A stretch of 64,000 bases of DNA from Spirochaetia bacterium (lineage in GTDB: Bacteria > Spirochaetota > Spirochaetia > SZUA-6 > Bin103): NCBI GenBank assembly GCA_965208575.1, contig CBDBOV010000004.1:576001-640000 (forward strand). Direction: 5' to 3'. A program made the position numbers and the translations under genes. Below the pieces are notes generated by a model, which saw nothing but the letters and a program-made list of their open reading frames with translations, did no database searches and was not told where the DNA came from. Positions 3,077 through 52,103 of this stretch are shown here, piece by piece. The first letter of the stretch is position 1; each line of letters starts with the position of its first letter.

Positions 3077-3150
3077 CGGGCAATGCGGGATTCGAACCCA
3101 CGACCTCTGGCTCCGGAGGCCAGCGCTCTATCCAGCTGAGCTAATTGCCC
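3077..3150 (-). tRNA. tRNA-Arg(CCG), no encoded CCA
   Basis: Minus strand GGGCAAT acceptor pairs with ATTGCCC; D-loop AGCTGGATAG; anticodon arm CTGGC-CTCCGGA-GCCAG; T-loop GGTTCGAATCC. Confidence 0.97.
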
Positions 3151-3955: not shown

Positions 3956-5393
3956 GGGTGCGAACGCCGAAAGCGGTAGCAAATCATTGACTCTGAGGCG
4001 GAAAAAAGGTCTACCTACCCCACGACACCACACCATGGGGAGGTAGACCATGAATACGGAAGGACTTATAACGGCCGCCGAGGGCCTTGTCAAGGAGTTG
4101 CAAGGGCGCATCAACGGCGGCCGGATGGATCTCCAGGAGGCGGAAGCCAAGATCCTTGAGATGGTGAACTGGATCGGCGACGAGATGGTGCAGGAAGTGG
4201 TAGCCGGACTCGCGGAGCCGACATCCGCCAACCAGATCACGGTTGGCGGTGAGGTGGCAGTGTTCGAGCGGGTGCGTAACCTGCGGTTCATCAACCGCTT
4301 CGGCGAAGAAGTGGTGCACCCGCGGCGCTGCTACCGGTACCGGCACCGGAGCGGAGGCGTGGCGCCGCTGGATGTGAAGCTGGGGATCGACGGGTGCTTC
4401 GGATTCTCACCGCTGATGACGTACCTGATCTGCATGCTGGGCGCGGATGAGTCGTATGCCGGTGCAGCGGCAAAACTGGAGGCGATGCTCGGGTTCAAGG
4501 TGAGCTCGACGGCGGTGCAGCGCACTACCGAGAAGACGGGAGAGCGGATACCCGATACCCCCGACGATCTAATTGATGAGCAGCGTCAGCGGCAGCCATG
4601 TTCCCTGATGGTGGTCGAGGTAGACGGAACGACGAGCCCGCAGATCACGGAGCAGGAAGGGATTACTGGTCTTGCCAGCCTCCGGGCGCCGACCTGTTAC
4701 AAGGAGTGCAACCTGATAGTCATCGAGAAGCACGATGATGGCAAGGTGATCGACCGCTGGACCGGAGGACGCTATGGACCACGCGGTGAGTTTGCCGGCT
4801 ACGCCGAGCAGGCTGGACTGCGAATGGGCTTCCTGGACGCTCCACGAACGCTGTTCCTCGGTGATGGTGCACACCACAACTGGGAACTGCAGCAGACCCA
4901 CTTCCCCGGCGCGATACCGATCCTGGACTACTACCACGCGGCTGAGCACCTCGCCGATTACTGCAAGCTGCTGTCTGCTACGCTACGCGATGCCGTCGAG
5001 CGCAGCTTGTCCACGATGATGTGGGAAGGCGAGGTGCTGCAGATGATCCACGAGATGAAGCGTTCACTGTCGAAGGTCACCGATACTGACGAAGCGTGGA
5101 AGCAGATCAACTACTTCACGAACAACCAGGACCGTATGGACTATGCCCGTTACCGCGATCTCGGGTGGCCGATCGGCAGTGGCTTGGTCGAAGGGCAGTG
5201 CAAATTGGTTGTCGGTCGACGCTTCAAGGGCAACGGGATGAGATGGCGACCGCACGACAACCGCTGCGTGCTACGCACCCGTCTGGCTCTGCTCAACGGC
5301 GACCTCAAGCGCTATTTCAGTCCTCCTGACGACTGCGAGATCAAAGCGGCCTGATCGTGTCAACCCCTGTTACCGCTTTTGGCATTGGCACCC
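3956..5393 (+). mobile_element. ISKra4-like insertion sequence, copy 1 (1438 bp)
   Basis: Imperfect 25-bp terminal IRs GGGTGCGAACGCCGAAAGCGGTAGC / GGGTGCCAATGCCAAAAGCGGTAAC (rc); 9-bp target duplication GATCACTAC at 3947-3955 and 5394-5402; second copy at 25023. Confidence 0.93.
4050..5354 (+). CDS. Mutator-like DDE transposase (ISKra4/UPF0236-related)
   Basis: VEVDG, FLGDGA, LDYYHAAEHL, PIGSGLVEGQCK..RFKGNGMRW motifs. Confidence 0.9.
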   Translation: MNTEGLITAAEGLVKELQGRINGGRMDLQEAEAKILEMVNWIGDEMVQEVVAGLAEPTSANQITVGGEVAVFERVRNLRFINRFGEEVVHPRRCYRYRHRSGGVAPLDVKLGIDGCFGFSPLMTYLICMLGADESYAGAAAKLEAMLGFKVSSTAVQRTTEKTGERIPDTPDDLIDEQRQRQPCSLMVVEVDGTTSPQITEQEGITGLASLRAPTCYKECNLIVIEKHDDGKVIDRWTGGRYGPRGEFAGYAEQAGLRMGFLDAPRTLFLGDGAHHNWELQQTHFPGAIPILDYYHAAEHLADYCKLLSATLRDAVERSLSTMMWEGEVLQMIHEMKRSLSKVTDTDEAWKQINYFTNNQDRMDYARYRDLGWPIGSGLVEGQCKLVVGRRFKGNGMRWRPHDNRCVLRTRLALLNGDLKRYFSPPDDCEIKAA

Positions 5394-20657: not shown

Positions 20658-21662
20658 CTAAGCGGCGGGGCGGCGCGGCGTGCGGCGTGGGCGGCGCCCG
20701 CCCCCGTAGCGGCCGGCGGCGCCGCGCAGGCGCGGGTCCAGCAGGTCGCGCAGCGCGTCGCCGAACAGGTTGAGGGCGTAGACCGTCACCGTCAGGCACA
20801 GGCCCGGCCACAGCGCCAGCCGCGGCGCAATCTCCATGTACTGGCGGCCCTCGCGGCTCAGCATGCCGCCCCAGCTCGGAACGGTCGCCGGCAGCCCGAA
20901 GCCCAGGAAGCTCAGCGACGCCTCGGCGATGATCACGCCGCCGACGTTGATGCTGAACACGACGATCAGCGGCGCCGCGATGTTGGGCAGCACGTGACGG
21001 ACGAGCGTGCGCAGCGTGCGGGCGCCGATCGCCTGCGCGGCCTGGAAGTAGGCGTTCTCCTTGACCCCGATCACCGCGCCGCGCACCACCCGTGACGCGG
21101 GAATGCCGCCGGCCACCCCGAGCACGACGATGATCTGCACCACGCCGCGGCCGGCGATCGACATGATGGTGAGCAGCAACAGCAGCCCCGGAAACGACAT
21201 CCACGCGTCCACGAACCGTTGCGCGTAGATGTCCAACCGCCCGCCGATGAAGCCGGTGGTGCCGCCGATCAGCAACGCGACCATCACGTTCAGCGACGTT
21301 GCCGCCAGCCCGACCGTGATCGACAGGCGCGCGCCGATGATGAGGCGGCTCAGGAAGTCGCGGCCGACGTGGTCGGTGCCCAGCAGGTGCGCGGCCGACG
21401 GACCCTGCATCCGGTCCTGCACCCGGCCGCGGTCGAATTCGTAGGGCGCGAGCTGCGCGGCGAAGATGGTGATGAACACCAGTGCCACGACGATGAGGCC
21501 GCCAATGGCTCCCAGCGGCTGTTCCTTCAGCAGCCGCGAGAGGAAGCTGGCCGCCGGTCGCCGACGCGCCGGTGCAGGAGCGCCCGCCGCGGAGGGTCCG
21601 GCGCCCGCGCCTCCGCGTGCGCGGCTGGCTCCGGCCGCGTCGCCCGGCGCCGGCTCACTCAT
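20658..21662 (-). CDS. Peptide/nickel-type ABC permease (DppC-like), operon 1
   Basis: LGTDHVGRD, RHVLPN, EASLSFLGFG, NLFGDALRDLLDPR. Confidence 0.93.
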   Translation of the reverse strand: MSEPAPGDAAGASRARGGAGAGPSAAGAPAPARRRPAASFLSRLLKEQPLGAIGGLIVVALVFITIFAAQLAPYEFDRGRVQDRMQGPSAAHLLGTDHVGRDFLSRLIIGARLSITVGLAATSLNVMVALLIGGTTGFIGGRLDIYAQRFVDAWMSFPGLLLLLTIMSIAGRGVVQIIVVLGVAGGIPASRVVRGAVIGVKENAYFQAAQAIGARTLRTLVRHVLPNIAAPLIVVFSINVGGVIIAEASLSFLGFGLPATVPSWGGMLSREGRQYMEIAPRLALWPGLCLTVTVYALNLFGDALRDLLDPRLRGAAGRYGGGRRPRRTPRRPAA

Positions 21663-22626
21663 AGCGCACCCGCGGATCCAGCAGGGCGTAGGTCAGGTCG
21701 GTGCCGAGGTTGATCACCACCACCACCGAGGCGAACAGCAGGTTGATGGCGGAAACCACCGGGTAGTCGCGCTCGTTGAGGGCAGTCAGCATCAGGCGGC
21801 CGAGCCCCGGCAGATTGAAGATGTTCTCGATGATGACCGAGCCACCGGCGATGATGGGCAGCTGCAGCGCCACCAGGGTCACCACCGGGATGAGGGCGTT
21901 CTTCACCGCGTGGCGGAGCACCACCCTCCGCTCCCCCACGCCCTTGGCCCAGGCGGTCCTGACATAGTCCTGGCGCAGCACCTCCAGCATCATCGTGCGC
22001 GTCATGCGCATCGTGCTCGCCGCCAGGTAGGTCCCCAGAATCAGCGCGGGGATGATCAGAATGCCGAGATTGCCCCAGGGGTCTTCGGTGAAACGGACGT
22101 GGGTCAGCGGCGGCGTCCAGCCCCACCAGATGGCGGGGTAGATCATCACCATCAGTCCCAGCCAGAAGTTGGGGGTCGCCAGACCGAAGATAGCGACCGC
22201 CCGGCCGGCGTAGTCGGCCACCGTGTACTGGCGAATCGCCGAGTAGATGCCGATCGGTGCGGCGATGATGAGCCCGGTGAGGATCGCCAGCAGCCCCAGC
22301 TCCACCGTCACCCCGGCCCTGCCGGCGAGCTTCTCCTCCACCGTGGCGCCGGCCGACGAGCCGCTGTACAGCGAGTGGCCGAGGGTGCCGCGCAGGACGA
22401 TGTCACCGATCCACTTCGCGTATTGCACGTAGACGGGTTTATCGAGCCCGAGCCGTCTCTTCAGAGCCTCCTCATCGATGGTGCCGCTCCCGCTGAAGGT
22501 CATCCGGGCGGCCATCACGTCGATGATGTCGCCGGGGATGAAGCGCACCGACAGGAACACCAGGAGGGTGACGATGAACAGGGTCGGGATCACCAGCAGT
22601 ACCCGCCTGATCACATACGCCCGCAC
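21655..22626 (-). CDS. Peptide/nickel-type ABC permease (DppB-like), operon 1
   Basis: QDYVRTAWAKG, RHAVKNALIP, IENIFNLPGLG, RDYPVV, LDPRVRY. Confidence 0.93.
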   Translation of the reverse strand: MRAYVIRRVLLVIPTLFIVTLLVFLSVRFIPGDIIDVMAARMTFSGSGTIDEEALKRRLGLDKPVYVQYAKWIGDIVLRGTLGHSLYSGSSAGATVEEKLAGRAGVTVELGLLAILTGLIIAAPIGIYSAIRQYTVADYAGRAVAIFGLATPNFWLGLMVMIYPAIWWGWTPPLTHVRFTEDPWGNLGILIIPALILGTYLAASTMRMTRTMMLEVLRQDYVRTAWAKGVGERRVVLRHAVKNALIPVVTLVALQLPIIAGGSVIIENIFNLPGLGRLMLTALNERDYPVVSAINLLFASVVVVINLGTDLTYALLDPRVRYE

Positions 22627-22722: not shown

Positions 22723-24525
22723 TCAGAACCCCATTTCGGCCTTCAGGTCCCGGTCGAGCCAGAGCCGGGCAAAAACCTGGACATCTCCTTGGTCCAGCAG
22801 GAACGACTCGCCGTTCCAGCCCTTGATCCACGGCTGGGCCACCTGGTATGTGGGGTACTTGAATCCGAATACCTGAAAATGCTGAGAGAGGAGGTGCTGG
22901 TCGAACTCTTTCGCGATTCGTATCTGCTCCGACTCTTCGGTCGTGGCGTTGAACGCATTGTAGAGCCGAATAAGCGTGGCGTCGGGAACGCCGCCCATAA
23001 ACTCTTTCAAATGATTCTTCTCTCCTTCCACGGCATAACGGTACCAGCTGAACATCGTGCTGATTTCCTGATCAAAGCCTGCGTAGCCGGTGGTCATATC
23101 GTAGAGCCCGTCGTCGCGGCGAGTGACCCAGGTGGGGGTGTCCACGGTGTTGATCTCCACCTCCACGCCGATCTCCTTCCAGTAGCCGGCGCCGATCTCG
23201 ACGTAGCCTAAGTCCCCGATGTCGCGGAAGTCGTAGGTGACCTTGAAGCGCACCCCGTCCGCGCCGCGCTGGTAGCCGGCCTCGTCGAGCAATTGCTCGG
23301 CCTTCTCCGGGTTGTAGCTGTATGCGTCCTGGAGCTCCTTTGGCCACTCGTCAAATGGGGTGTAAGCGGGCTTATTAGCGTTTCCGATGAAGCCTGAAGG
23401 GTTCCGTTGCGCGTGCCCGCCATAGTAGCTGTCGTTGATCGCATCGCGGTCGAGGGCCATCTGCATTGCCCGGCGCACGCGGATGTCGTCGAACGGCGGC
23501 TTACGGATGTTCAAGCCGGACACTGCGAACGCACTCTGGAAGTAGGGGCCCACTTGAATGTCGGGATTGGTGCCCAGCAAAGAATTGAGCACCTCGAGGT
23601 TAGGGATCAAGCCGCCGGCGAAACGGTGAAGTATGTCGACCTGGCCGGTGCGCATAGCGGCGATGCGGGTCGCTTCCTCCGCCATGAACAGGCCCTTCAC
23701 CTCGTCGACGTAGGGCAGCTGGTTGTCCGGATACTTCTCGTCGAAGCCGTGGAAGTCGGGATTACGCGTCCTGGTCATCGAGACTTCCTCGACGTGCTCA
23801 GTAAGCATGAGCGGCCCGGTGCCGACTACGTTTCGCCAGTCGGTGTAGTCACCGCGCTGCTCGATGACCTCGCGCGGCAGTATCCACGCGGCGCCCTCAG
23901 CGAGGATCGCCCGAGCCATAGTCAGGCGCGGCTCGGTCAGCTTGAACACGACCGTGTACTTGTCGCTGGCCTCGATGGACTCCCACGGCAACCCGAAGAG
24001 CTGGCCGGTGTACTCGGGCTTCCAGTCGAGCAGGCCGCTAGGGCGGCGGTATGCCCAGGCGACGTCCTCTGCGGTCAGTTCGCGCCCATTCATCGGCGCC
24101 TTGTCGTGCCACTGAATGCCCGGTTTGATCTTGACGATGAACGTGCGGTCGTCCGGTTGCTCCCAGCTCTCGGCCAGGTTACCGCGGAAGGTCGAGGTCG
24201 GCACGTAGTACCCGGTGAAGCTAAACTCGTCTCGGGGAAGGCCCCAGTCTCCCTGCACGAGCTGCTCGTTGACCCCGGAAAGCTGAAAGCCAGCCCAGCC
24301 TCCCGTGATCGACGGGTCGGTGTTCTCACCGAAGAATCTGTACGCGTAGGTGAGCGTGCCGCCGTACTCGGGGGCGGTGACCTGCATCCCGGTCGTCGGG
24401 TCGGTGACCATCGGCTTGTCCGCAGCCGCGGCCGCTTCCTCGCCGGCGGGCGCCGCCGACGCGTCGGTCGCGGCCAGGACGAACCCGATCAGTGCCGCAA
24501 CCCATAGTCTACAATTATGTATCAT
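22723..24525 (-). CDS. Family-5 ABC solute-binding protein (DppA-like), operon 1
   Basis: GGAGG RBS, signal peptide MIHNCRLW.., PEYGGTL, LAESWEQPD, VGTGP, PPFDDIRVRRAM. Confidence 0.92.
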   Translation of the reverse strand: MIHNCRLWVAALIGFVLAATDASAAPAGEEAAAAADKPMVTDPTTGMQVTAPEYGGTLTYAYRFFGENTDPSITGGWAGFQLSGVNEQLVQGDWGLPRDEFSFTGYYVPTSTFRGNLAESWEQPDDRTFIVKIKPGIQWHDKAPMNGRELTAEDVAWAYRRPSGLLDWKPEYTGQLFGLPWESIEASDKYTVVFKLTEPRLTMARAILAEGAAWILPREVIEQRGDYTDWRNVVGTGPLMLTEHVEEVSMTRTRNPDFHGFDEKYPDNQLPYVDEVKGLFMAEEATRIAAMRTGQVDILHRFAGGLIPNLEVLNSLLGTNPDIQVGPYFQSAFAVSGLNIRKPPFDDIRVRRAMQMALDRDAINDSYYGGHAQRNPSGFIGNANKPAYTPFDEWPKELQDAYSYNPEKAEQLLDEAGYQRGADGVRFKVTYDFRDIGDLGYVEIGAGYWKEIGVEVEINTVDTPTWVTRRDDGLYDMTTGYAGFDQEISTMFSWYRYAVEGEKNHLKEFMGGVPDATLIRLYNAFNATTEESEQIRIAKEFDQHLLSQHFQVFGFKYPTYQVAQPWIKGWNGESFLLDQGDVQVFARLWLDRDLKAEMGF

Positions 24526-25019
24526 GAGGTTTCCTCCAAACCTTCGTTGCTTCGAGAGTGGTGAATTCAGTGCCGGCCCGCGCCGACTCTCGCGGTATGC
24601 CTGCGATTCGCAGGGACCGAACAGCGAAGGCGGCACCCTCGACCACGAGCAGTGCCTGGGGGCGCCGGCGGGTGGACCGCGGGCGAGCGGCCCGTTGCCG
24701 GGAGTTCCCGCCTGGTGAGGTGACCGGCCGACGACGAATCGGCCGCGAGGCAGCGCCGCGGTCAGCGGACCGCGCAGGCTGCGCAGAAGGTAGCGGTCGC
24801 GCCCGGCTAACTCGTTAGTGTTTCTGAGGTTGTATGGAAATGGCCCCGGTGGTGGGGGGGGGTACAGAGGGCGTAGAGCGGCGGTAGAGCGCACCGGTTG
24901 CGCTTTCTGGAACCGGCGGCGGCGCTGGGTACTGTCGTCACGCGTCATTTGCATCCGTTCCACCCGAAGCCCGCAGCCATCATTGCACACGCACGGCATA
25001 CCGTCAAATGGCCGCGGGG
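24526..25019 (-). promoter_or_regulatory. Conserved promoter plus structured 5' leader, copy 1
   Basis: Near-identical to 33120-33614 and 51613-52103; TTGACG(25007-25002)-N17-AATGAT; multiple hairpins. Confidence 0.8.
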
Positions 25020-25022
25020 ACG

Positions 25023-26460
25023 GGGTGCGAACGCCGAAAGCGGTAGCAAATCATTGACTCTGAGGCGGAAAAAAGGTCTACCTACCCCACGACACCACAC
25101 CATGGGGAGGTAGACCATGAATACGGAAGGACTTATAACGGCCGCCGAGGGCCTTGTCAAGGAGTTGCAAGGGCGCATCAACGGCGGCCGGATGGATCTC
25201 CAGGAGGCGGAAGCCAAGATCCTTGAGATGGTGAACTGGATCGGCGACGAGATGGTGCAGGAAGTGGTAGCCGGACTCGCGGAGCCGACATCCGCCAACC
25301 AGATCACGGTTGGCGGTGAGGTGGCAGTGTTCGAGCGGGTGCGTAACCTGCGGTTCATCAACCGCTTCGGCGAAGAAGTGGTGCACCCGCGGCGCTGCTA
25401 CCGGTACCGGCACCGGAGCGGAGGCGTGGCGCCGCTGGATGTGAAGCTGGGGATCGACGGGTGCTTCGGATTCTCACCGCTGATGACGTACCTGATCTGC
25501 ATGCTGGGCGCGGATGAGTCGTATGCCGGTGCAGCGGCAAAACTGGAGGCGATGCTCGGGTTCAAGGTGAGCTCGACGGCGGTGCAGCGCACTACCGAGA
25601 AGACGGGAGAGCGGATACCCGATACCCCCGACGATCTAATTGATGAGCAGCGTCAGCGGCAGCCATGTTCCCTGATGGTGGTCGAGGTAGACGGAACGAC
25701 GAGCCCGCAGATCACGGAGCAGGAAGGGATTACTGGTCTTGCCAGCCTCCGGGCGCCGACCTGTTACAAGGAGTGCAACCTGATAGTCATCGAGAAGCAC
25801 GATGATGGCAAGGTGATCGACCGCTGGACCGGAGGACGCTATGGACCACGCGGTGAGTTTGCCGGCTACGCCGAGCAGGCTGGACTGCGAATGGGCTTCC
25901 TGGACGCTCCACGAACGCTGTTCCTCGGTGATGGTGCACACCACAACTGGGAACTGCAGCAGACCCACTTCCCCGGCGCGATACCGATCCTGGACTACTA
26001 CCACGCGGCTGAGCACCTCGCCGATTACTGCAAGCTGCTGTCTGCTACGCTACGCGATGCCGTCGAGCGCAGCTTGTCCACGATGATGTGGGAAGGCGAG
26101 GTGCTGCAGATGATCCACGAGATGAAGCGTTCACTGTCGAAGGTCACCGATACTGACGAAGCGTGGAAGCAGATCAACTACTTCACGAACAACCAGGACC
26201 GTATGGACTATGCCCGTTACCGCGATCTCGGGTGGCCGATCGGCAGTGGCTTGGTCGAAGGGCAGTGCAAATTGGTTGTCGGTCGACGCTTCAAGGGCAA
26301 CGGGATGAGATGGCGACCGCACGACAACCGCTGCGTGCTACGCACCCGTCTGGCTCTGCTCAACGGCGACCTCAAGCGCTATTTCAGTCCTCCTGACGAC
26401 TGCGAGATCAAAGCGGCCTGATCGTGTCAACCCCTGTTACCGCTTTTGGCATTGGCACCC
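25023..26460 (+). mobile_element. ISKra4-like insertion sequence, copy 2
   Basis: Same length, IRs and protein as copy 1; 8-bp target duplication CGGGGACG at 25015-25022 and 26461-26468. Confidence 0.93.
25117..26421 (+). CDS. Mutator-like DDE transposase, identical protein to 4050-5354
   Basis: Identical 434-aa translation. Confidence 0.9.
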   Translation: MNTEGLITAAEGLVKELQGRINGGRMDLQEAEAKILEMVNWIGDEMVQEVVAGLAEPTSANQITVGGEVAVFERVRNLRFINRFGEEVVHPRRCYRYRHRSGGVAPLDVKLGIDGCFGFSPLMTYLICMLGADESYAGAAAKLEAMLGFKVSSTAVQRTTEKTGERIPDTPDDLIDEQRQRQPCSLMVVEVDGTTSPQITEQEGITGLASLRAPTCYKECNLIVIEKHDDGKVIDRWTGGRYGPRGEFAGYAEQAGLRMGFLDAPRTLFLGDGAHHNWELQQTHFPGAIPILDYYHAAEHLADYCKLLSATLRDAVERSLSTMMWEGEVLQMIHEMKRSLSKVTDTDEAWKQINYFTNNQDRMDYARYRDLGWPIGSGLVEGQCKLVVGRRFKGNGMRWRPHDNRCVLRTRLALLNGDLKRYFSPPDDCEIKAA

Positions 26461-26562: not shown

Positions 26563-27537
26563 CTAGGAAGAAGAGCTCGCCTCCAGTTGCTGCTTGAGCC
26601 GGCCAAATGTGGCCTCGTCGATTCCGGTGGCCGCCTCTATCGTGGCCCACGGAACATCCCGGTCCAGCAATCCTTCGATGGTGCTTACCTGAGTCATGAG
26701 TACCCCTTCCTGGCGGCCCTCCCTAAGGCCCTTCTGACGGGCTTCCTGCTGTATCACCTCGCCGTAGATCTCAAGCATCTCCTGCGTCTTGTTCATCAGT
26801 TCTGCACCTCCCGGTACGTGTCGCCGTACCGCATCCGCGAATCTGTCCCAGCGCTCCGGTTCCCTCGTCGTGGCCGCCATGTACACGACGATCTGCCTCA
26901 GTTCGTCGGTTCCCCCGACCTGCACCAGCTCCGCCAGAAGCGGCACCAACCGCCGCATCACCGGCCAACTTGCCCGGTACGCCGCCATCAGCGCCAGTTG
27001 CGCGATGCGACCGCGCAACTCACCGCGCAACTCACTTGGCCCCACCTTCGTCTGGTCGACCAAGAGGTGCGCGTAGCGCGGCACTCCCGGCCAGCCTCGA
27101 ACTTCCGGGACGAACAACTCCGAGAACTCGCGCGCGGGGCTCCAGCCGTGCCGCCCCTGGTACAACACCAGCGGCACTATCGGGCGCAGGTGCTGCTCAT
27201 CGGGGTACTGCTTCCGATCCCGTTCCCAGATCCTGATACTGTACTTCAGCAGCCGCAGCCGCAACCAGGGGTCCGGCGTCGACTGGTGCTCCAGCAACAC
27301 GTACAGCCACACCGGTTCGTCATCAGCCTTGCGCTGAACCGCGTACAGCAGGTCCGATTCGCTGTCGCGTAACCGGTCGTCGATGAAGCTGACCTCCTGC
27401 CCCTTGAGGCTCGACCACAGCAACTCGTTGTTGACCGCCTCCGGCAGGTGCGCCCGCAGCAGGCCGGCCGCCTCGGCCTCCTCTCGGAACACAGATCGGA
27501 ACAGGTGATCGTGGGGCTTGGAGACCTCGCCGGCCAT
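26563..27537 (-). CDS. Rpn family recombination-promoting nuclease / putative transposase (YhgA-like)
   Basis: PHDHLFR, SDLLY, VLLEHQSTPD, PIVPLVLYQG, C-terminal KGLREGRQEG; TTGACA-N18-TACCGT upstream. Confidence 0.9.
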   Translation of the reverse strand: MAGEVSKPHDHLFRSVFREEAEAAGLLRAHLPEAVNNELLWSSLKGQEVSFIDDRLRDSESDLLYAVQRKADDEPVWLYVLLEHQSTPDPWLRLRLLKYSIRIWERDRKQYPDEQHLRPIVPLVLYQGRHGWSPAREFSELFVPEVRGWPGVPRYAHLLVDQTKVGPSELRGELRGRIAQLALMAAYRASWPVMRRLVPLLAELVQVGGTDELRQIVVYMAATTREPERWDRFADAVRRHVPGGAELMNKTQEMLEIYGEVIQQEARQKGLREGRQEGVLMTQVSTIEGLLDRDVPWATIEAATGIDEATFGRLKQQLEASSSS

Positions 27538-27936
27538 GACGACGGCGGCACGGTATTGCCTTCCGCGACGCGCTGTCAACGGCCCCAACCGGCCCGGGCC
27601 GAGTTGGCCACCACGGCGCCGACCGTGCCCGAGGTCGCGGTCGCCACCACCGTGTCCCCGGCCAAAGGTATCGCGGGGTTTGACGCCGCTACTTCGGGCT
27701 GAGCAACGAGGTGACCCGGCAATCGGCGAGATTGGTCGCCACGACCCTCGAGCTAGAGCGGTGGCGCCCGATCACCGAGGGCGCCAGTCTGCTTCTCCGT
27801 ACACCAACCATGCATCCACCCGACGGCCGTCCCAGTGATAGCAGAGGTGTCTGCCAGGGACGGGAAGGCCCGCCACGGCGGCTGACTTCTGCCGCGGCAC
27901 CACGCGCGCGGGATAGTCCTCGCTACACGACCCTCG

Positions 27937-31319: not shown

Positions 31320-33119
31320 CTAATAGCCCATGGCTCTCTTCAGTTCACTATCAATCCAGAGGCGGGAGAAGACCACCATGTTTTGCATTCCTCCAAAGCC
31401 GCCTTCGCCGTTATAGCCGATCACCCACGGCCAGTGAACGCTAAAGGCTGGCGCCAAAGGCCCCCAGATAGCCCAGAACTGCTCTATAATGCGCCAGTCC
31501 ATCTGTCTAAACAGCGCCTTCTGTTCCTCGATGGTGGTAGCCACTTGGGCGGCCTCATACAGGGCGTCATATTCCGGGTCCGAGACTCCAGTGTTTCCGG
31601 GATTGCCGCTCCAATAAAGATGCATATTGATGCTTGGATCAGCCTTGATGCCCAGGACCTGAGGCCCAATCTCCCAGTCGCCAGCACGTCTTCTCGCGTT
31701 AGATTCTGCCATGCTAGGCGTCTCAATGTCCACGACAACGCCAATGTCACGCCAGTACTCTGCGACTAATTCTGCCCAGCTCACCTCAATCTGCGGAAAG
31801 TGCATGTACGTGGTCTTGAATCTCATGCCGTCCGCGCCACGGGGAAGCCCAGCCTCATCAAGCAGCTTCTCTGCCCCCGCCGGATCATACCTGTGGTATC
31901 GCTTGATTTCTTCCGGCCACTCTTCAAATGGGACGTGATAGCCCTTGAATTCCAGGGCGACTATGCCCCGAGGAATCGTATCTGCAGCACCCTTGTAGAA
32001 GGCATCGTTCATTGTTTCGAGGTCCAGGGCCATCTGCATCGCCTGGCGCACCCTGATGTCGTCAAAGGGCGGCTTGTTGGTGTTCATGGCAAAGCTGGCA
32101 TTCGACCGTTCTGACCACGTGTGGAAAACGAGCTCGGGGTTGGTCTCCCTGAGGCGATCCGCCGTCTCTATCTCGTTCAATTGGGTGGCGCCCGGCCAAC
32201 CTATGAAATCGATCTTAGCAGTGCGCAGCCCGGCCAGAAAGGTGGCCTCTTCAGGGATAACAAGACCCACTACCTCGTCAATATAGGGCAGGCGGTTCTC
32301 CGGGTATTTTTCGTCGAAGCCCCAGTAGTTGGGATTCTTGGTCCAGGTTATGGAGCTGCCCTTGGTAAAGTCAGTTATCGTATAGGGCCCGGTGCCGACA
32401 ATATTCCTCCAATCCTGCATGTCCCCGTATTGCTCGATTACCTCGGGCGGCTGTATAACAGCATTCCAGTCGTCCAAAATAAGATTCAGCGCGCGGAGCT
32501 TCGGCTCCTTCAGCTTCATCACAACCGTATACTTGTCGGTGGCCTCTACCGATTCGAACGGAAAAGCTTTGAGGGTACCCGATGGGGAAGGGTCGGCTTC
32601 ACTGAACTGGGTCCCGGTCAATTTATTTCCCAACAGGCGGTGAAAGCTATGTTCGACATCGTCGGCCGTCAGCTCGCGCCCGTTCATCGGCGCTTTGTCG
32701 TGCCAGTGAACCCCCTGGCGGATGTGGAAGATGTAGGTAGTGGCGTCGGGCTGTTCCCAGCTTTCAGCCAGCGCCCCCCTCAGGGCGTAGAGCGGCGCGA
32801 CATAGCCGGTGAGAAAGGGATATGTGTCCCTATCTATTGCCCAATCCGCCATGGCCAGTTTCTCTACAACGCCACTGGTCATGCCTAACGCTCGGAAGCC
32901 AAACCAGACATCGCCAGGCTCGAGGTTGAATTTGATGGCGTGGGTCAAAGTCCCGCCATACTCTGGCGCGCTCACCACGTTGCCGGTGGTCGGGTCGGTC
33001 ACCATCGGCTTGTCGGCAGCCGCAGCCGCTTCCTCGCCGGCGGGCGCCGCCCACGCGGCGGTTGCGGCCAAGACGAACCCGATCAGTGCCGCAACCCATA
33101 GTCTACAATTTCGTATCAT
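31320..33119 (-). CDS. Family-5 ABC solute-binding protein, operon 2
   Basis: Signal peptide MIRNCRLW.., PEYGGTL, LAESWEQPD, VGTGPY, PPFDDIRVRQAM. Confidence 0.92.
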   Translation of the reverse strand: MIRNCRLWVAALIGFVLAATAAWAAPAGEEAAAAADKPMVTDPTTGNVVSAPEYGGTLTHAIKFNLEPGDVWFGFRALGMTSGVVEKLAMADWAIDRDTYPFLTGYVAPLYALRGALAESWEQPDATTYIFHIRQGVHWHDKAPMNGRELTADDVEHSFHRLLGNKLTGTQFSEADPSPSGTLKAFPFESVEATDKYTVVMKLKEPKLRALNLILDDWNAVIQPPEVIEQYGDMQDWRNIVGTGPYTITDFTKGSSITWTKNPNYWGFDEKYPENRLPYIDEVVGLVIPEEATFLAGLRTAKIDFIGWPGATQLNEIETADRLRETNPELVFHTWSERSNASFAMNTNKPPFDDIRVRQAMQMALDLETMNDAFYKGAADTIPRGIVALEFKGYHVPFEEWPEEIKRYHRYDPAGAEKLLDEAGLPRGADGMRFKTTYMHFPQIEVSWAELVAEYWRDIGVVVDIETPSMAESNARRRAGDWEIGPQVLGIKADPSINMHLYWSGNPGNTGVSDPEYDALYEAAQVATTIEEQKALFRQMDWRIIEQFWAIWGPLAPAFSVHWPWVIGYNGEGGFGGMQNMVVFSRLWIDSELKRAMGY

Positions 33120-33614
33120 GAGGTTTCCTCCAACCTTCGTTTCTTCGAGAGTGCTGAATTCAGTTGCCGGCCCGCGCCGACTCTCGCGGTATGCCTGCGA
33201 TTCGCAGGGACCGAACAGCGCGGGCGGCACCCTCGACCACGAGCAGTGCCTGGGGTGCCGGCGGGTGGACTGCGGGCGAGCGGCCCGTTGCCGGGAGTTC
33301 CCGCCTGGTGAGGTGACCGGCCGACGACGAATCGGCCGCGAGGCAGCGCCGCGGTCAGCGGACCGCGCAGGCTGCGCAGAAGGTAGCGGTCGCGACCGGC
33401 TAACTCGTTAGTGTTTCTGAGGTTGTATGGAAATGGGCCCCGGTGGGGGGGCAGAGGGCGTCGAGCAGCGGAACGGCGGTAGAGCGCACCGGTTGCGCTA
33501 TCTGCAACCGGCGGCGGCGCTGGGTACTGTCGTCACGCGTCATTCGCATCCGTTCCACCCGCAGCCCGCAGCCATCATTGCACACGCACGGCACACCGTC
33601 AAATGGCCGCGGGG
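33120..33614 (-). promoter_or_regulatory. Conserved promoter plus structured 5' leader, copy 2
   Basis: TTGACG(33602-33597)-N17-AATGAT; near-identical to the other two copies. Confidence 0.8.
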
Positions 33615-33693
33615 CGCCGGCACTGCGTGCGTACACTTTCCCATGACCGAGGTTTGACGACGGCCACAACTGTCACTACACTGCCGTAGTTAC

Positions 33694-33745
33694 ATGGAGG
33701 GTACCGAGGCAGGAAAGGAGGGCGTATGAAGAAGGCAACCAGTGA
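33694..33745 (+). pseudogene. Internally deleted brnT toxin remnant
   Basis: TTGACG-N17-TACACT promoter, ATG, then tail RQERRAYEEGNQ-stop overlapping the brnA start, as BrnT C-termini do. Confidence 0.6.
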
Positions 33746-34019
33746 CCGGTTGACCGGGGATCAGAAGGCGGAAATCATGGCTTTGGAGGATTCTCCGGAC
33801 GAGCAGATCGATACGACCGACATTCCTGAAGTCCTCGACTGGTCGGAGGCGAAACGAGGCGTGTTCTTCCGTCCCATGAAGCAGCAGATCACACTCCGGT
33901 TGGATGCAGATGTGGTGGCCTGGTTCAAGCAGCGGTCTCGCGGTGGCCGTGGTTATCAAACCGACATCAACCGTGCACTGCGAGAGCATGTCCAACGAAT
34001 CGAAGGCAGTACCAAGTAG
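33726..34019 (+). CDS. brnA: BrnA antitoxin
   Basis: DEQIDTTDIPE, RPMKQQITLRLDADVVAWFK, GYQTDINRALREH. Confidence 0.9.
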   Translation: MKKATSDRLTGDQKAEIMALEDSPDEQIDTTDIPEVLDWSEAKRGVFFRPMKQQITLRLDADVVAWFKQRSRGGRGYQTDINRALREHVQRIEGSTK

Positions 34020-34034
34020 TCTCCGAGCGAATAG

Positions 34035-35816
34035 ATGCGGCGCCCCACCCCAAACAACAGCGCGCCAAGCGGCCGCGACGCCGACGCCGACTTCATCGTC
34101 GTCGGTGCCGGTGCGGCCGGTGGCGTGATGGCGGCACGGCTCTCCGAGGGCCGCGCGAAGCGAGTGCTGCTGCTCAAGGCAGGACACGACTACGACAGGG
34201 CCGGAAGCAACGAAGGTCTCCCGGACACGATTCGCTACGGCTACGGGAATCGGGACAACGGTGGCCCGGCAGAGGTCCGAGGGCATCACTGGTATCCAGA
34301 TTCCGACAACCCCCTATCCAAAGACGAGGCGTTCGCGCTGCGGGGCGGCCTCTACGGCTACACGCGCGCGGGCGATGGACGGCGCGCCGTCGACCTGCCG
34401 CGCGGGCGTGTGGTCGGGGGGACGACCTCGGTAAACAGCCAGATGTGGGTCCGTGGCACGACCGAGGACTTCGAGCACTGGAGCGGGACGCTCGGCTGCG
34501 CGACATGGTCGTTCGAAAACGTGCTGCCGTTCTTCAACGCCGTCGAGTCGGACGTCGACTATGGGGCCGAAGACTTCCACGGAGACCGCGGCCCGGTCCC
34601 TGTCCGGCGCCACCTGCGCTCGGAGTGGCGGGCGGCCGACGTCGCCTGGCACGACGCCTGCGTGGCGGCCGGATTCGACAGCTGCGCGGACGTCAACGAG
34701 CCCGGGACTGCGGGCGGTGTTGGGTCGCTGGCGCTGAACAACGTGAACCGCGTGCGGCAGAGCTCGGCGCTCACTTTTCTCGCCCAGGCGCGGGGCCGCC
34801 CGAACCTGGTCATCCGCGGTAATTCCGAGGTCCGGCTTGTTCTCTTCGATGACGACCGCGGCACGCCTCGGGCAGTCGGCGTGGAGCTGACGGACGGGAC
34901 GGTTCTGCGTGCCCGAACCGAGGTGATCCTGTGCGGTGGGGCGATCGGTTCGCCGCACCTGCTCCTGCGCTCCGGCGTGGGTCCCGCGGAGGAGCTCGAG
35001 GCGGCGGGGGTCGCCACGATTGTGGATCTCCCCGGTGTCGGCCGGAACCTGCGCGACCACGTGGCGCTTCCGTTGACGTTCCGAATGAAGGAAGGCATCG
35101 CCTCGAACAACGTCGACGGCTCCGCGCACCCCATGCCGATGTACCTTCGGTACACCGCAGACGCGCTCGACGGGATGGCGCCCATGAGGAACGACATGCT
35201 GTTTTTCCTGGGACCGCGGCAGAGCCAGGTGGGCGAGGTCGAGCGCTTGGCCGGGCACAACTCTTCCGGCCACCGCGTTTTCGTCATCATTCCGACCCTC
35301 ATGCTCGAGCTCAGCGCGGGCACGCTGAAGATGCCGGCCGCCTTCGCAGACGGCGCACCAGACATGGAGGCCATGCCCGTGATCGAGATGGGCTGGTTGG
35401 AGCATCCTGCCGATCGCATACGCCTTCGCGAGGGGCTGCGCCTGGCGCTGCGGCTCGCCGCCTCCACGGAGATGGCGACCGTCCTCGAAGGTCCGATCGT
35501 GCCGGCCGAGGACGAGGTGACGGCCGAGTCGTCCGACGCCGCCCTCGACGACTGGGTCGAGCGGCACGTCATTACGTCGCACCACCAGAGCAGCTCGTGT
35601 CGAATGGGCGATCCCGCCGACCCGACGGCCGTGTGCGACGAAGACGGGAACGTGCTCGGGACGAAGGGCCTGCGCGTGGTGGACGCGAGCCTGATGCCGG
35701 ATTGCCCGCGGGCAAACACGCAGGCGACGACCTACATGATGGCTGAGCGTATCGCGGGCATCGTCAACCACGGCTCGTTGGCGGCGGCGCTCCGGGCGGC
35801 GGTCGAGGGAGAGTGA
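34035..35816 (+). CDS. GMC family oxidoreductase (choline dehydrogenase-like)
   Basis: DFIVVGAGAAG, PRGRVVGGTTSVN, GAIGSPHLLLRSGVG, GLRVVDASLMP..ANT. Confidence 0.9.
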   Translation: MRRPTPNNSAPSGRDADADFIVVGAGAAGGVMAARLSEGRAKRVLLLKAGHDYDRAGSNEGLPDTIRYGYGNRDNGGPAEVRGHHWYPDSDNPLSKDEAFALRGGLYGYTRAGDGRRAVDLPRGRVVGGTTSVNSQMWVRGTTEDFEHWSGTLGCATWSFENVLPFFNAVESDVDYGAEDFHGDRGPVPVRRHLRSEWRAADVAWHDACVAAGFDSCADVNEPGTAGGVGSLALNNVNRVRQSSALTFLAQARGRPNLVIRGNSEVRLVLFDDDRGTPRAVGVELTDGTVLRARTEVILCGGAIGSPHLLLRSGVGPAEELEAAGVATIVDLPGVGRNLRDHVALPLTFRMKEGIASNNVDGSAHPMPMYLRYTADALDGMAPMRNDMLFFLGPRQSQVGEVERLAGHNSSGHRVFVIIPTLMLELSAGTLKMPAAFADGAPDMEAMPVIEMGWLEHPADRIRLREGLRLALRLAASTEMATVLEGPIVPAEDEVTAESSDAALDDWVERHVITSHHQSSSCRMGDPADPTAVCDEDGNVLGTKGLRVVDASLMPDCPRANTQATTYMMAERIAGIVNHGSLAAALRAAVEGE

Positions 35817-46662: not shown

Positions 46663-47747
46663 CGCTTTACGACTCGACGTACGTGGACGGAGTTGCGCAC
46701 AGCATCCCACGCCAAATGAAGACCGAGCTTGCGGCGCGATACGGGGCGCTGGGTTTCATCGGCTGGCACCACAGCCCCGGACAGCACCTGCCCGCGGGAA
46801 CGTGCGCGTTCGGGCGCGTCGGCGGCGTACCGGTGGCATCGATCACCTACGAAGACGGCGCATGGCTTCAGCGTGTCGCACGGCGCAGGGGGTCGCTGCG
46901 GTTTCGCCTGCTGCTGGACAGCCGGATCGAACGCAAGGACTCCTGGAACGTCGTCGGAGAAGTGACCGCCCGGGGCGAAGGAGCGGAAGCGACCGGCAAC
47001 GAGCACCTCGTCATCGGCGCGCACTACGACTGTCATCACGTTGCTTCGGGCGCCATCGACAATGCGGCGGGGGTGGCCACCGTGCTCGAGGCCGCGCGGG
47101 GGCTGAGCACGTTCGCATCGCATCTTCGACGCGACGTCAAGATCGTCCTGTTCGGCGTGGAGGAGCCCGGTCTCGTCGGCTCCATGGCCTATGTGCATCG
47201 CCACGAGCGGGAGCTGGGCGACCTCGTGCTGATGATCAACAACGACTGTCTCGGAGGTCGACCGTCCGGCATCGAAATACAGGGTCGCGACGAACTCCGC
47301 GGAACCATGGAGCAGGTCGCGGAGAGCGTCCGGATCGGTGGCGAACCTCCGCCTCCTTTCCGCGTCACGACCGCCCATCCCGGCTGGTGGGGCCTGGACA
47401 GCACACCGTTCGGATTCAAGGGCGTCCCGACGGTCCACCTGACGTCGACCGAGGCGAAGACCGGGGACTTCGCTTCCTATCACCTCGACACCGATCACAT
47501 CGACAAGGTGTGCATCCCGGGCCTCACGGAGGCGGCGGTGGTCAACGCGCGGATCGCCCTCCACGTCGCCAACCTGACCGAGCGCCCGGCGGCTCGCATC
47601 GACCGATCGCACGTAGAAGAGATCCTTCACCGATACGACCGGGAGCCGCCGTTCTACACGATCATCTCGTTGCGCGAATCCCTCGAACTGCTGGATCTCT
47701 GGCCGATCGATCATGCGATCGAACGCTACTTTTCCCGCGAAGACTGA
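46663..47747 (+). pseudogene. 5'-truncated duplicate of the M28 peptidase
   Basis: Near-identical to 36414-37498; lacks the first ~134 codons. Confidence 0.9.
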
Positions 47748-48751
47748 CCGGACGACGGCCGCCGGCCCCCGTAGCGACCGGCGGCGCCGCGCAGACGCGG
47801 GTCCAGCAGGTCCCGCACCGCGTCGCCGAACAGGTTGAGGGCGTAGACCGTCACCGTCAGGCACAGGCCCGGCCACAGCGCCAGCCGCGGCGCAATCTCC
47901 ATGTACTGGCGACCCTCGCGGCTCAGCATGCCGCCCCAGCTTGGAACGGTCACCGGCAGGCCGAAGCCCAGGAAGCTCAGCGACGCCTCGGCAATGATCA
48001 CGCCGCCGACGTTGATGCTGAACACGACGATCAGCGGCGCGGCGATGTTGGGCAGCACGTGACGGACGAGCGTGCGCAGCGTGCGGGCACCGATCGCCTC
48101 CGCGGCCTGGAAGTAGGCGTTCTCCTTGACCCCGATCACCGCGCCGCGCACCACCCGTGACGCGGGAATGCCGCCGGTCACCCCGAGCACGACGATGATC
48201 TGCGCCACGCCGCGCCCGGTGATCGACATGATCGTCAGCAGCAACAGCAGCCCCGGAAACGACATCCACGCGTCCACGAACCGTTGCGCGTAGATGTCCA
48301 GCCGCCCGCCGATGAAGCCGGTGGTGCCGCCGATCAGCAACGCGACGATGACATTCAACGACGTTGCCGCGAGCCCGACCGTAATCGACAGGCGCGCGCC
48401 GATGATGAGGCGGCTCAGGAAGTCGCGGCCGACGTGGTCGGTGCCCAGCAGGTGCGCGGCGGACGGGCCCTGCATCCGGTCCTGCACGCGGCCGCGGTCG
48501 AATTCGTAGGGCGCGAGCTGCGCGGCGAAGATGGTGATGAACACCAGTGCCACGACGATGAGGCCGCCAATGGCTCCCAGCGGCTGTTCCTTCAGCAGCC
48601 GCGAGAGGAAGCTGGCCGCCGGTCGCCGGCGCGCCGGTGCAGGAGCGCCCGCCGCCGAGGGTCCGGCACCCGCGCCGCCGCTTGAGCCGCCACCACCGCG
48701 TGCGCCTGTGCGGCCGGCGCCGGCCGCGGCCCCCGGCGCCGGCTCACTCAT
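47726..48751 (-). CDS. DppC-like ABC permease, operon 3
   Basis: Very similar to 20658-21662; stop lies inside the antisense of the M28 fragment. Confidence 0.92.
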   Translation of the reverse strand: MSEPAPGAAAGAGRTGARGGGGSSGGAGAGPSAAGAPAPARRRPAASFLSRLLKEQPLGAIGGLIVVALVFITIFAAQLAPYEFDRGRVQDRMQGPSAAHLLGTDHVGRDFLSRLIIGARLSITVGLAATSLNVIVALLIGGTTGFIGGRLDIYAQRFVDAWMSFPGLLLLLTIMSITGRGVAQIIVVLGVTGGIPASRVVRGAVIGVKENAYFQAAEAIGARTLRTLVRHVLPNIAAPLIVVFSINVGGVIIAEASLSFLGFGLPVTVPSWGGMLSREGRQYMEIAPRLALWPGLCLTVTVYALNLFGDAVRDLLDPRLRGAAGRYGGRRPSSGQSSREK

Positions 48752-49715
48752 AGCGCACCCGCGGATCCAGCAGGGCGTAGGTCAGGTCGGTGCCGAGGTT
48801 GATCACCACCACCACCGAGGCAAATAACAGGTTCACGCCGGAGACCACCGGGTAGTCGCGCGCGTTGAGGGCAGACAGCATCAGACTGCCGAGCCCCGGG
48901 AGATTGAAGATGTTCTCGATGATGACCGAGCCGCCGGCGATGATGGGCAACTGCAGCGCCACCAGGGTCACCACCGGGATGAGGGCGTTCTTGACCGCGT
49001 GGCGCAGCACCACGGTCCTCTCCGCCAGGCCCTTGGCCCAGGAGGTCCTCACGTAGTCCTGGCGCAGCACCTCCAGCATCATCGTGCGCGTCATGCGCAT
49101 GGTGCTCGCTGCCAGGTAGGTCCCCAGAATCACGGCGGGAATGATCAACATGCCGAGATTGGCCCATGGGTCTTCGGTGAAGCGGACGTGCGTCAGCGGC
49201 GGCGTCCAGCCCCACCAGATTGCGGGGTAGATCATCACCATCAGTCCCAGCCAGAAGTTGGGGGTCGCCAGGCCGAAGATGGCGACCGCCCGGCCGGCGT
49301 AGTCGGCCACCGTGTACTGGCGAATCGCCGAGTAGATGCCGATCGGCACGGCGATGATGACCCCGGTGAGGATCGCCAGCAGCCCCAGCTCGACCGTTAC
49401 CCCGACCCTGCCGGCGAGTTTCTGTTCCACCGTTGCGCTGCCCAACGAGCCGCTGTACAGCGAGCGGCCGAGGGTGCCACGCAGGACGATGTCACCGATC
49501 CACTTCGCGTATTGCGCGTAGACGGGTTTATCGAGTCCGAGTTGTCTCTTCAGAGCCTCCTCATCGATCGTGCCGCTCTGGGTTGCGGTCATCCGGGCTG
49601 TCATCACGTCGATGATGTCGCCGGGAATGAAGCGAACCGAGAGAAACACCAGGAGGGTGACGATGAACAGGGTCGGGATCACCAGCAGTATCCGCCTGAT
49701 CACATACGCCCGCAC
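48744..49715 (-). CDS. DppB-like ABC permease, operon 3
   Basis: Very similar to 21655-22626. Confidence 0.93.
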   Translation of the reverse strand: MRAYVIRRILLVIPTLFIVTLLVFLSVRFIPGDIIDVMTARMTATQSGTIDEEALKRQLGLDKPVYAQYAKWIGDIVLRGTLGRSLYSGSLGSATVEQKLAGRVGVTVELGLLAILTGVIIAVPIGIYSAIRQYTVADYAGRAVAIFGLATPNFWLGLMVMIYPAIWWGWTPPLTHVRFTEDPWANLGMLIIPAVILGTYLAASTMRMTRTMMLEVLRQDYVRTSWAKGLAERTVVLRHAVKNALIPVVTLVALQLPIIAGGSVIIENIFNLPGLGSLMLSALNARDYPVVSGVNLLFASVVVVINLGTDLTYALLDPRVRYE

Positions 49716-51612: not shown

Positions 51613-52103
51613 GAGGTTTCCTCCAAACCTTCGTTTCTTCGAGAGTGCTGAATTCAGTTGCCGGCCCGCGCCGACTCTCGCGGTATGCCTGCGATTCGCA
51701 GGGACCGAACAGCGCGGGCGGCACCCTCGACCACGAGCAGTGCCTGGGGTGCTGGCGGGTGGACTGCGGGCGAGCGGCCCGTTGCCGGGAGTTCCCGCCT
51801 GGTGAGGTGACCCGCCGACGACGAATCGGCGGTGAGGCAGCGCCGCGGTCAGCGGACCGCGCAGGCTGCGCAGAAGGTAGCGGTTGCGACCGGCTAACTC
51901 GTTAGTGTTTCTGAGGTTGTATGGAAATAGCCCTGGGGGGGAGGGGGGTACAGAGGGCGTAGAGCGGCGGTAGAGCGCCGGTTGCGCTATCTGCAACCGG
52001 CGGCGGCGCCCGGTACTGTCGTCACGCGTCATTCGCATCCGTTCCACCCGAAGCCCGCAGCCATCATTGCGCACGCACGGCATACCGTCAAATAGCCGCG
52101 GGG
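51613..52103 (-). promoter_or_regulatory. Conserved promoter plus structured 5' leader, copy 3
   Basis: TTGACG(52091-52086)-N17-AATGAT; near-identical to the other copies. Confidence 0.8.

Follow-up and report, generated by a model that had tools for sequence, protein, structure and literature searches.

The DNA considered here, a stretch of 64,000 nucleotides (nt) that we call the window, is positions 576,001 to 640,000 of contig CBDBOV010000004.1 from the 6.5-Mb genome of a Spirochaetia bacterium (assembly GCA_965208575.1). It contains three copies of a cassette of about 490 bases that includes a promoter and the long leader of a transporter operon. The copies are found at 24526-25019, 33120-33614 and 51613-52103, all on the minus strand, exactly where the original prediction, made from the letters alone, had placed a conserved leader. 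They are 93-94% identical to one another and share an abrupt upstream boundary about 15 nt 5' of a TTGACG hexamer. When copy 2 was searched against the whole genome with BLAST, it aligned over its full length at exactly three places (100, 94 and 93% identity), and two further matches were short and partial. The genes behind the leaders encode solute-binding proteins (SBPs) of the SBP_bac_5 family (Opp/Dpp/Nik-type; E 9e-65, 2.5e-73 and 4e-65 for copies 1, 2 and 3). Their ATGs begin at 24525, 33119 and 51612, one base below the start of each cassette interval, and each SBP gene is followed by two genes for OppB/OppC-type permeases. None of the three SBPs reached an equivalog cut-off in NCBIfam, so no substrate is assigned.

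The leader is modular, and its parts turn up separately from one another both elsewhere in this genome and in relatives. In copy 2 the 5' block (module A, 33483..33602) holds the promoter (33574..33602), a G-rich run resembling a Shine-Dalgarno (SD) sequence, conserved AUGs at 33549 and 33543, and a hairpin CCGGTTGC/GCAACCGG at 33489-33511. An upstream open reading frame (ORF) occupies 33400..33549 and includes a C tract, CCCCCCCACC (33442..33451), which lies within a C-rich, G-poor stretch of about 90 nt. The middle part (module B, 33251..33441) carries the stems CTAAC/GTTAG, CGCGGTC/GACCGCG, CGGCCGA/TCGGCCG and CGGGC/GCCCG. The SD-proximal part (module C, 33130..33235) contains a pseudoknot. 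The SD sequence itself (GGAGG, 33127-33131) and the start codon (33119-33117) make up 33117..33131, and the SBP coding sequence (CDS) spans 31320-33119.

The original prediction of a structured regulatory RNA of about 450 nt stands for the last ~105 nt of the leader, where covarying helices are found, and does not stand for the leader as a whole, the 5' block or the middle stems. This 3' part, module C, consists of four helices, one of them forming a pseudoknot, and it recurs before other genes of SBP family 5 (SBP5). Helix P1 pairs GUGCCG with CGGCAC, and P2 pairs CC-CUCGC with GCGAGGG. P1 and P2 are stacked and enclose P3, a hairpin of variable length. The pseudoknot helix P4 joins CGAGAGU, inside the P2 loop, to ACUCUCG, about 9 nt after P1; its GAGAG strand is invariant. 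The helices of copy 2 lie at 33225-33230/33163-33169 (P1), 33218-33224/33171-33177 (P2), 33194-33208 (the P3 hairpin) and 33180-33186/33146-33152 (P4). The motif is found at 24537..24641 in copy 1, where P2 is weakened (CCTTCGC versus GCGCGGG), and at 51624..51729 in copy 3. The distance from the end of the four-helix fold to the SD sequence is 12-13 nt in the window copies and 4-18 nt in the family.

A covariance model, R1, was built on P1-P3 only, with P4 left out. It scores 95 bits on copy 1, 96 bits on copy 2 (E 2.7e-23) and 96.8 bits on copy 3 (E 1.7e-23), and has 29 matches in this genome, 28 of them directly before an SBP5 homologue. When 31 sequences are aligned with MAFFT, the two sides pair in 84.9% of cells, versus 34-47% in slid controls, and double changes occur in 17 of 27 pairs versus 5-9 in the controls. 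None of 500 shuffles reaches the observed score, a count that overstates the support, as the covarying rows are paralogues from a few related genomes and the events are not independent. The 71 model matches correspond to 60 distinct rows from seven genomes of the genus and three of its sister genus; here 86.6% of cells pair (35-50% when slid) and 16 of 27 pairs show double changes. P4, which the model does not contain, is 88.3% paired, with six of its nine pairs changed on both sides. RNAalifold applied to the MAFFT alignment picks P4 unaided (8 pairs, 5 with double changes). G-U pairs are frequent, amounting for example to 22 and 12 cells, which fits an RNA transcribed from this strand. Covarying helices in a 5' untranslated region (UTR), as in domains of the riboswitch type, are a property of the 3' 105 nt and not of the whole leader.

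Some pairings compete with this fold or belong to single subfamilies. P4 and P1/P2 could be alternative rather than simultaneous folds. The 5' strand of P1 has a possible second partner in the window copies, an upstream GGCAC, but this pairing is not general in the family. A pairing of CUCUCGAA with UUUGGAG is predicted by RNAalifold for the window subfamily alone. The junction between the 3' strands of P1 and P4 (33153-33162 in copy 2) usually opens with a stop triplet. TGA is the commonest, some members have TAA or TAG, and others have a triplet that is not a stop. In the orthologous leaders of two genomes of the genus, G001 and G006, this triplet ends upstream ORFs in frame +2.

About 30 sister leaders outside the window, among them those at C4:524691 (-), C6:140833 (+) and C5:195708 (-), have a strong SD sequence and a 10-codon upstream ORF, MILKEPHARAA-stop. 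A long stem (GCGCGCGGCGTGA ... TCACACGCCGCGCGC) takes its 5' arm from the 3' half of this ORF, and behind it comes a variant of the GAGAG/CUCUC pseudoknot, with the arrangement CTGGC-hairpin-CGAGAGTA-GCCAG-hairpin-GCAA-TACTCTCG. Long upstream ORFs that begin in the 5' block often end exactly at the stop of the 10-codon ORF or at an ATGA start/stop overlap. The sister leaders add weight to the idea that leaders of this type are control regions coupled to translation.

Upstream of module C the structural case is not sustained. All of the stems listed in the original prediction are present in the sequence, and among them only CCTGCG/CGCAGG belongs to the supported motif, where it is P3. The description of the leader as hairpin-rich fails: its minimum free energy of -214.2 kcal/mol, versus -206.7 +/- 7.4 for shuffled sequences (z = -1.01), is equalled or bettered by 16 of 100 shuffles. 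Five of the stems, lying in the 3' three-quarters of the leader, are 91.9% paired across 10 homologues versus 91.3% in shuffles, of which 111 of 500 score as high, and the RNAalifold covariation term is +0.25. Covariation on a larger set of homologues is found in the 3' block, and none above shuffled level, on the 10 homologues, in the middle stems. The double change reported for copy 3 (CGGCCGA..TCGGCCG to CCGCCGA..TCGGCGG, 51812-51832) is real and anecdotal, being the one compensatory cell of 270 counted. The G006 orthologue has only the 5' half of this change, leaving a C-C mismatch, and some variants break stems. A small hairpin (A3 columns 162-176) shows two double changes, only in three tandem copies of one genome.

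The promoter that had been proposed, TTGACG-N17-AATGAT, was recovered by a consensus scan. In copy 2 the -35 hexamer TTGACG (33602-33597) and the extended -10 TG-AATGAT (33579-33574) are separated by a 17-nt spacer, and the predicted start of transcription is ~33567. The scan found three promoter-like sites in the 900-nt region, versus 0.1 expected from shuffles. Two further promoter-like sites, on the plus strand, are located at 33654-33682 and 33750-33778. The promoter of copy 1 is at 24979..25007 (-35 at 25007-25002, -10 at 24984-24979) and that of copy 3 at 52063..52091, within 5' blocks at 24888..25007 and 51974..52091.

The 5' block is about 118 nt long and includes the -35, the -10 and ~85 transcribed nt. 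This genome has 90 nhmmer matches to it at E<=0.01, of which 47 are full length and some are in tandem, and 83 of the 90 have an SBP5 homologue within 3 kb downstream on the same strand. The SBP5 loci of the genome number ~133 by tblastn, counting alignments of 300 amino acids or more. Sixty of these have a 5' block within 1.4 kb upstream, and 91 carry at least one leader module. The leader family in this genome comprises at least 60-90 homologous modular members. Tandem arrays of the 5' block, promoter included, consist of two or three units 80-180 nt apart (C6:950792/950936/951062, C4:525443/525263 and C4:564799/564619), which implies stacked promoters before some operons.

The most conserved positions of the 5' block are the promoter hexamers, the G run and the ATG. 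In an alignment of 70 distinct copies the -35 bases and positions A2 and T6 of the -10 are invariant. Among 73 copies, an ATG is present at either of two aligned sites in 68, and an SD-like run with at least three G in 49. The upstream ORF is short (70 codons or fewer) in 47 of these copies, long (71-400 codons) in 22 and longer than 400 codons in 4. For 47 copies RNAalifold gave no consensus fold and no pairs, and in a mutual-information scan of the block subfamily signal dominates, with no clean Watson-Crick pairs. The 5' block was rejected as a structured RNA on these grounds.

The most variable part of the leader is the C tract, which reads CCCCCCCCCACC in copy 1 (24851..24862) and CCCCCCTCCCCCCC in copy 3 (51935..51948). 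Among six leaders the C-tract region (30 columns) is 36-65% identical, versus 95-100% over the 317 other columns. The leaders of G001 and G005, another genome of the genus, agree at 315 of 316 positions elsewhere and at 14 of 29 in this region. All three frames of the upstream ORF (0, 1 and 2) are present among five near-identical leaders. Because the hypervariable C tract shifts the frame, the upstream ORF has three different endpoints. In copy 2 it has 49 codons and ends at a TAG (33402-33400) within the CTAAC/GTTAG hairpin. In the orthologues of G006 (127 codons) and G001 (131 codons) the stop, counted from offsets, is the UGA between P1 and P4. In copies 1 and 3 the frame that begins at AUG 24954 and AUG 52038, respectively, is free of stops and continues in frame into the SBP ORF (743 and 744 codons). 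The upstream ORF thus contains a slippage-prone repeat that differs between close relatives and resets the frame, the comparison being among relatives and not within one population.

Since single-base indels break the frame between copies, the leader is considered non-coding. The possibility that it is an N-terminal extension of the SBP was rejected: the frame is broken by 1-nt indels in copy 2 as well as in the orthologues of G001 and G006, and the SBP has its own SD sequence, ATG and signal peptide. In one subgroup of leaders, tandem 10-base repeats (CGTCCTGCTC or CGGCCTGCTC) of 2 to 8 or more units replace the C tract (C6:489623, C6:513577 and C5:187084, minus strand). At C4:509659 one leader copy contains more than 50 C in a row.

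The composition around the C tract resembles that of a Rho-dependent attenuator. Over 47 leaders the mean of (C-G)/30 lies between +0.2 and +0.3 in the interval +115..+200, counted from the -35, and the window copy has two 30-nt segments with C16/G4 and C10/G2. Rho is encoded in this genome (a Rho_RNA_bind match of 115.6 bits in a 680-amino-acid open frame). The leaders therefore combine a C-rich, G-poor and weakly structured stretch of ~80 nt or more with a genome that encodes the factor.

The leader is better conserved than the SBP bodies, as had been proposed. Compared in 100-nt steps, the copies are 92-99% identical across the leader and the opening 100-190 nt of the CDS, except at the C tract, where copy 2 falls to 75-77% against the others. 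The SBP body of copy 2 is 35-70% identical to those of copies 1 and 3, which are 70-89% identical to each other. Copies 1 and 3 mostly share 86-99% identity in their permeases. The SBP genes of copies 1 and 3 (22723-24525 vs 49804-51612) are more diverged than the permease genes behind them (20658-22626 vs 47726-49715), which suggests diversifying selection or mosaic exchange. Copy 2 joins a leader and signal-peptide region of the copy 3 type to a different SBP body, in line with the portable element of the original prediction. A paralogue in G001 is 87% identical to copy 1 throughout. This pattern points to recombination or gene conversion of a cassette made up of leader and signal-peptide region, rather than to any additional purifying selection acting on the leader; the copies would be so alike because the cassette has been exchanged between paralogous operons.

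The taxonomic range of the pseudoknot motif is narrow. R1 matches 10 of 61 genomes, including this one. Within the genus, six of the ten other genomes have matches (50 in G001, 49 in G005, 18 in G006, 14 in G003, 6 in G007 and 3 in G008), and in the sister genus three of 13 genomes have a single weak match each. The 37 genomes searched from the remaining families of the order gave no match, and neither did 150 further genomes of the phylum. A strict motif pattern was found at 14 loci in genome contigs, all in OZ253572.1 (MAG: Spirochaetia bacterium), and at one locus in metagenome contigs; these counts are a lower bound, as the pattern misses variants.

The original prediction recognised no known riboswitch consensus, and in Rfam 15 neither the window copy nor any of 14 diverged copies matches a family. 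At the gathering threshold the whole window gave only a tRNA (3077-3150). A scan of 33050-33700 by E-value gave one chance match (E 9.8), and the 14 diverged copies at E<=5 gave three unrelated matches, all far below thresholds. Word searches of the full-text literature found no description of the motif or of the leaders, which is not proof of absence.

Two studies (runs X2 and X4) provide contigs from RNA libraries labelled sponge metagenome that extend over 33076-33554, across the SBP start codon. They are 92-97% alike and, as assembled contigs in which DNA carry-over is possible, weakly suggest that the SBP mRNA includes the leader. The gaps upstream of 33555 (X2 and X4) and over the leader (X1 and X3) carry no evidential weight. 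Two X4 contigs break at 33451/33452, the edge of the C tract, which is only a hint.

Taken together, we favour, with some reservation, the view that the cassette is a promoter and modular 5' leader of ~445 nt belonging to SBP_bac_5 ATP-binding cassette (ABC) importer operons, which acts in cis on SBP expression through the SD-proximal pseudoknot, the upstream ORF set by the C tract, and Rho entry, and whose copies are alike by cassette exchange. The 3' pseudoknot is probably a new cis-acting control element. In the mechanism envisaged, a sigma-70-type promoter would drive the ~445-nt leader of an operon that encodes the binding protein and two permeases. The pseudoknot beside the ribosome-binding site would gate the initiation of translation or the fate of the mRNA, and the C-rich stretch, when untranslated, would be a likely site of Rho entry. 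The length of the C tract would set the frame of the upstream ORF, and hence the distance that ribosomes travel. Travelling ribosomes may protect the RNA against Rho and open the pseudoknot.

Several observations weigh against this view, in addition to the shared ancestry of the covarying rows. The duplex of the CUCUC strand with the SD sequence is no better than that of shuffled strands (-6.3 vs -5.75 +/- ~2 kcal/mol; 17 of 20 copies parsed). The CUCUC strand was accordingly rejected as an anti-SD that sequesters the SD sequence, the duplex energy being at shuffled level. No intrinsic terminator-like site was found on the leader strand of the window leaders. The orthologues in G001, G005 and G006 are 96-97% identical to copy 3 in leader and CDS alike, and show no extra constraint on the leader. 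The upstream ORF lacks the marks of a coding sequence as well. Its column entropies by codon position (0.97, 0.98 and 1.02) have no 3-periodicity. In 80 close pairs the differences number 141, 253 and 289 by codon position, and the synonymous share is 27% versus 26% in another frame; among the window copies all four differences are non-synonymous. Open frames are the expectation in C-rich, G-poor sequence. A conserved leader peptide (MKRHDDSQR...PVH plus poly-Pro) was rejected for want of 3-periodicity and because the synonymous share equals that of another frame, and it is kept as a possible translated ORF only.

A first alternative is that the 105-nt pseudoknot is the aptamer of a metabolite or second-messenger riboswitch, through which a single shared signal would switch the translation of many SBP5 transporters. 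The conserved junction nucleotides and the four covarying helices, pseudoknot included, speak for such an aptamer. So do the variable length of P3, a trait of many aptamers, the fixed site in the 5' UTR directly before the SD sequence of one gene family (28 of 29 matches), and the failure to match known families. However, the window leader tests found no riboswitch expression platform, neither a terminator nor an alternating, specific pairing that sequesters the SD sequence. In addition, 25-50 copies per genome before paralogues of presumably differing specificity would be unusual for a riboswitch. The range is very narrow (strong in 6 of 10 other genomes of the genus, weak and single in 3 of 13 of the sister genus, 0 of 37 in the remaining families of the order and 0 of 150 in the phylum), and the invariance of the GAGAG/CUCUC core suggests that the sequence itself is recognised, for instance by a protein. 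We regard a riboswitch as unlikely.

Known leader RNAs provide points of comparison for this alternative. SAM-II, SAM-V, preQ1-II and preQ1-III are riboswitches with an H-type pseudoknot in which the SD sequence itself takes part. Module C is like them in that a hairpin loop and a 3' tail form a pseudoknot just upstream of a start codon. Unlike them, it has its SD sequence 4-18 nt downstream (12-13 nt in the window) and has no match in Rfam. The livK motif of Pseudomonas is an Rfam family. Candidate motifs before binding-protein genes also include the livJ motif of Streptomyces, a candidate cis-regulatory RNA (Narunsky et al. 2024, PMC11109978). The resemblance to livJ and livK is that of a structured, covariation-supported and lineage-restricted element of the 5' UTR, placed by the SD sequence of a periplasmic binding-protein gene and with its ligand unassigned. 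Module C differs from both in lacking a sequence or structure match in Rfam 15 and in preceding SBP family 5 rather than LIVBP. It differs further in its pseudoknot with the invariant GAGAG/CUCUC helix, its 25-50 copies per genome and its much longer, modular leader.

It is also improbable, in our estimation, that the leader modules are mere baggage of paralogue expansion, with a pseudoknot that serves as a constitutive mRNA stabiliser, processing barrier or translation enhancer setting the stoichiometry of SBP to permease, a C tract that is simply mutable, and nothing regulated. The presence of at least one module at 91 of the 133 SBP5 loci, common by descent, fits this explanation, as do the missing expression platform, the unconstrained upstream ORF and orthologous leaders that are conserved no better than their CDS. 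On the other hand, the 5' block is ~65% identical among paralogues whose proteins are only 40-60% identical, and compensatory changes have been maintained, both of which imply selection. The upstream AUG and the SD-like run are conserved, and the sister leaders have an attenuator-like upstream ORF embedded in a stem.

A mobile repeat, or one resembling repetitive extragenic palindromes (REP) or miniature inverted-repeat transposable elements (MITE), or else a plain recent duplication without RNA function, is highly improbable: the region is rich in insertion sequence (IS) elements and duplications, a transposase gene with a UPF0236 match abuts copy 1, the leader cassette has been exchanged between operons and the 5' block forms tandem arrays, but the copies keep one orientation and position ahead of a single gene family (83 of 90 for the 5' block and 28 of 29 for the pseudoknot), no terminal inverted repeats were seen, and diverged copies (64-76% identity) keep their pairing through double changes.

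The favoured reading of a cis-acting leader can be taken further, in a form that we put forward only tentatively and hold to be doubtful. In this extension the leaders would constitute a contingency system for nutrient uptake, in which dozens of Opp/Dpp-type operons carry a slippage-prone C tract or a 10-base repeat in an upstream ORF. Depending on the frame, translation would stop early, stop at a conserved stop codon within the SD-proximal pseudoknot or enter the SBP gene. Rho access and unfolding of the pseudoknot would convert these outcomes into stochastic, heritable on/off expression, with the pseudoknot, a new RNA class, as the read-out module.

A precedent for such switching is the reported phase variation of a leader peptide by slipped repeats, coupled with attenuation, at pil1 of Streptococcus gallolyticus (Danne et al. 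2014, PMC3894217). The two systems share a slippage-prone repeat in a short upstream ORF that resets the end of leader translation and could set downstream expression stochastically. The present leaders differ from pil1 in that their repeat is a homopolymeric C tract, replaced by a 10-base repeat in sister leaders, in having an SD-proximal pseudoknot, in their presence at dozens of operons, and in that the window copies have no intrinsic terminator and the role of Rho is inferred only.

In the tna/TnaC and mgtA/MgtL systems, Rho-dependent attenuation in the leader is coupled to translation of the leader. The leaders described here are similar in being long and in having a stretch with C in excess of G and a leader ORF whose ribosomes would cover this stretch. 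They differ from the Rho-linked leaders in that they have no conserved leader peptide and no homology to them. The C runs of the window would be read as proline runs in any frame. This can be likened to the loss of transcription-translation coupling reported for polyproline without EF-P (PMC5021804). A precedent among spirochaetes is oppAI of Borrelia burgdorferi, an oligopeptide-binding-protein gene for which several short RNAs derived from the 5' end are reported (PMC10319736). The nearest known systems are analogies and not homologues, and the motif is filed as a cis-regulatory structured leader RNA.

The surroundings of the cassettes contain several other features. An IS-like element (25023-26421) begins ~18 nt upstream of the copy 1 -35 and contains the transposase gene with the Pfam UPF0236 match (25117-26421). 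Its first 300 nt (25023-25322) have an identical copy (100%) at 3956-4255. A gene for a YhgA-like transposase is found at 26563-27588. A gene for a GMC-family oxidoreductase (34035-35816, plus strand) is divergent from the copy 2 promoter region. The tRNA gene at 3077-3150 is on the minus strand.

If the pseudoknot is functional, it would represent a new class of cis-acting RNA with an unusually high copy number (25-50 per genome, and more with the variant form). The host lineage is uncultured and probably sponge-associated, and has undergone a very large expansion of SBP5, to ~133 loci. The cassettes of the window provide a clean example of leaders swapped between paralogous operons. Leaders that join a promoter, an upstream ORF, a hypervariable tract and a pseudoknot suggest a way in which a symbiont with a very large set of transporters might vary or randomise their expression.

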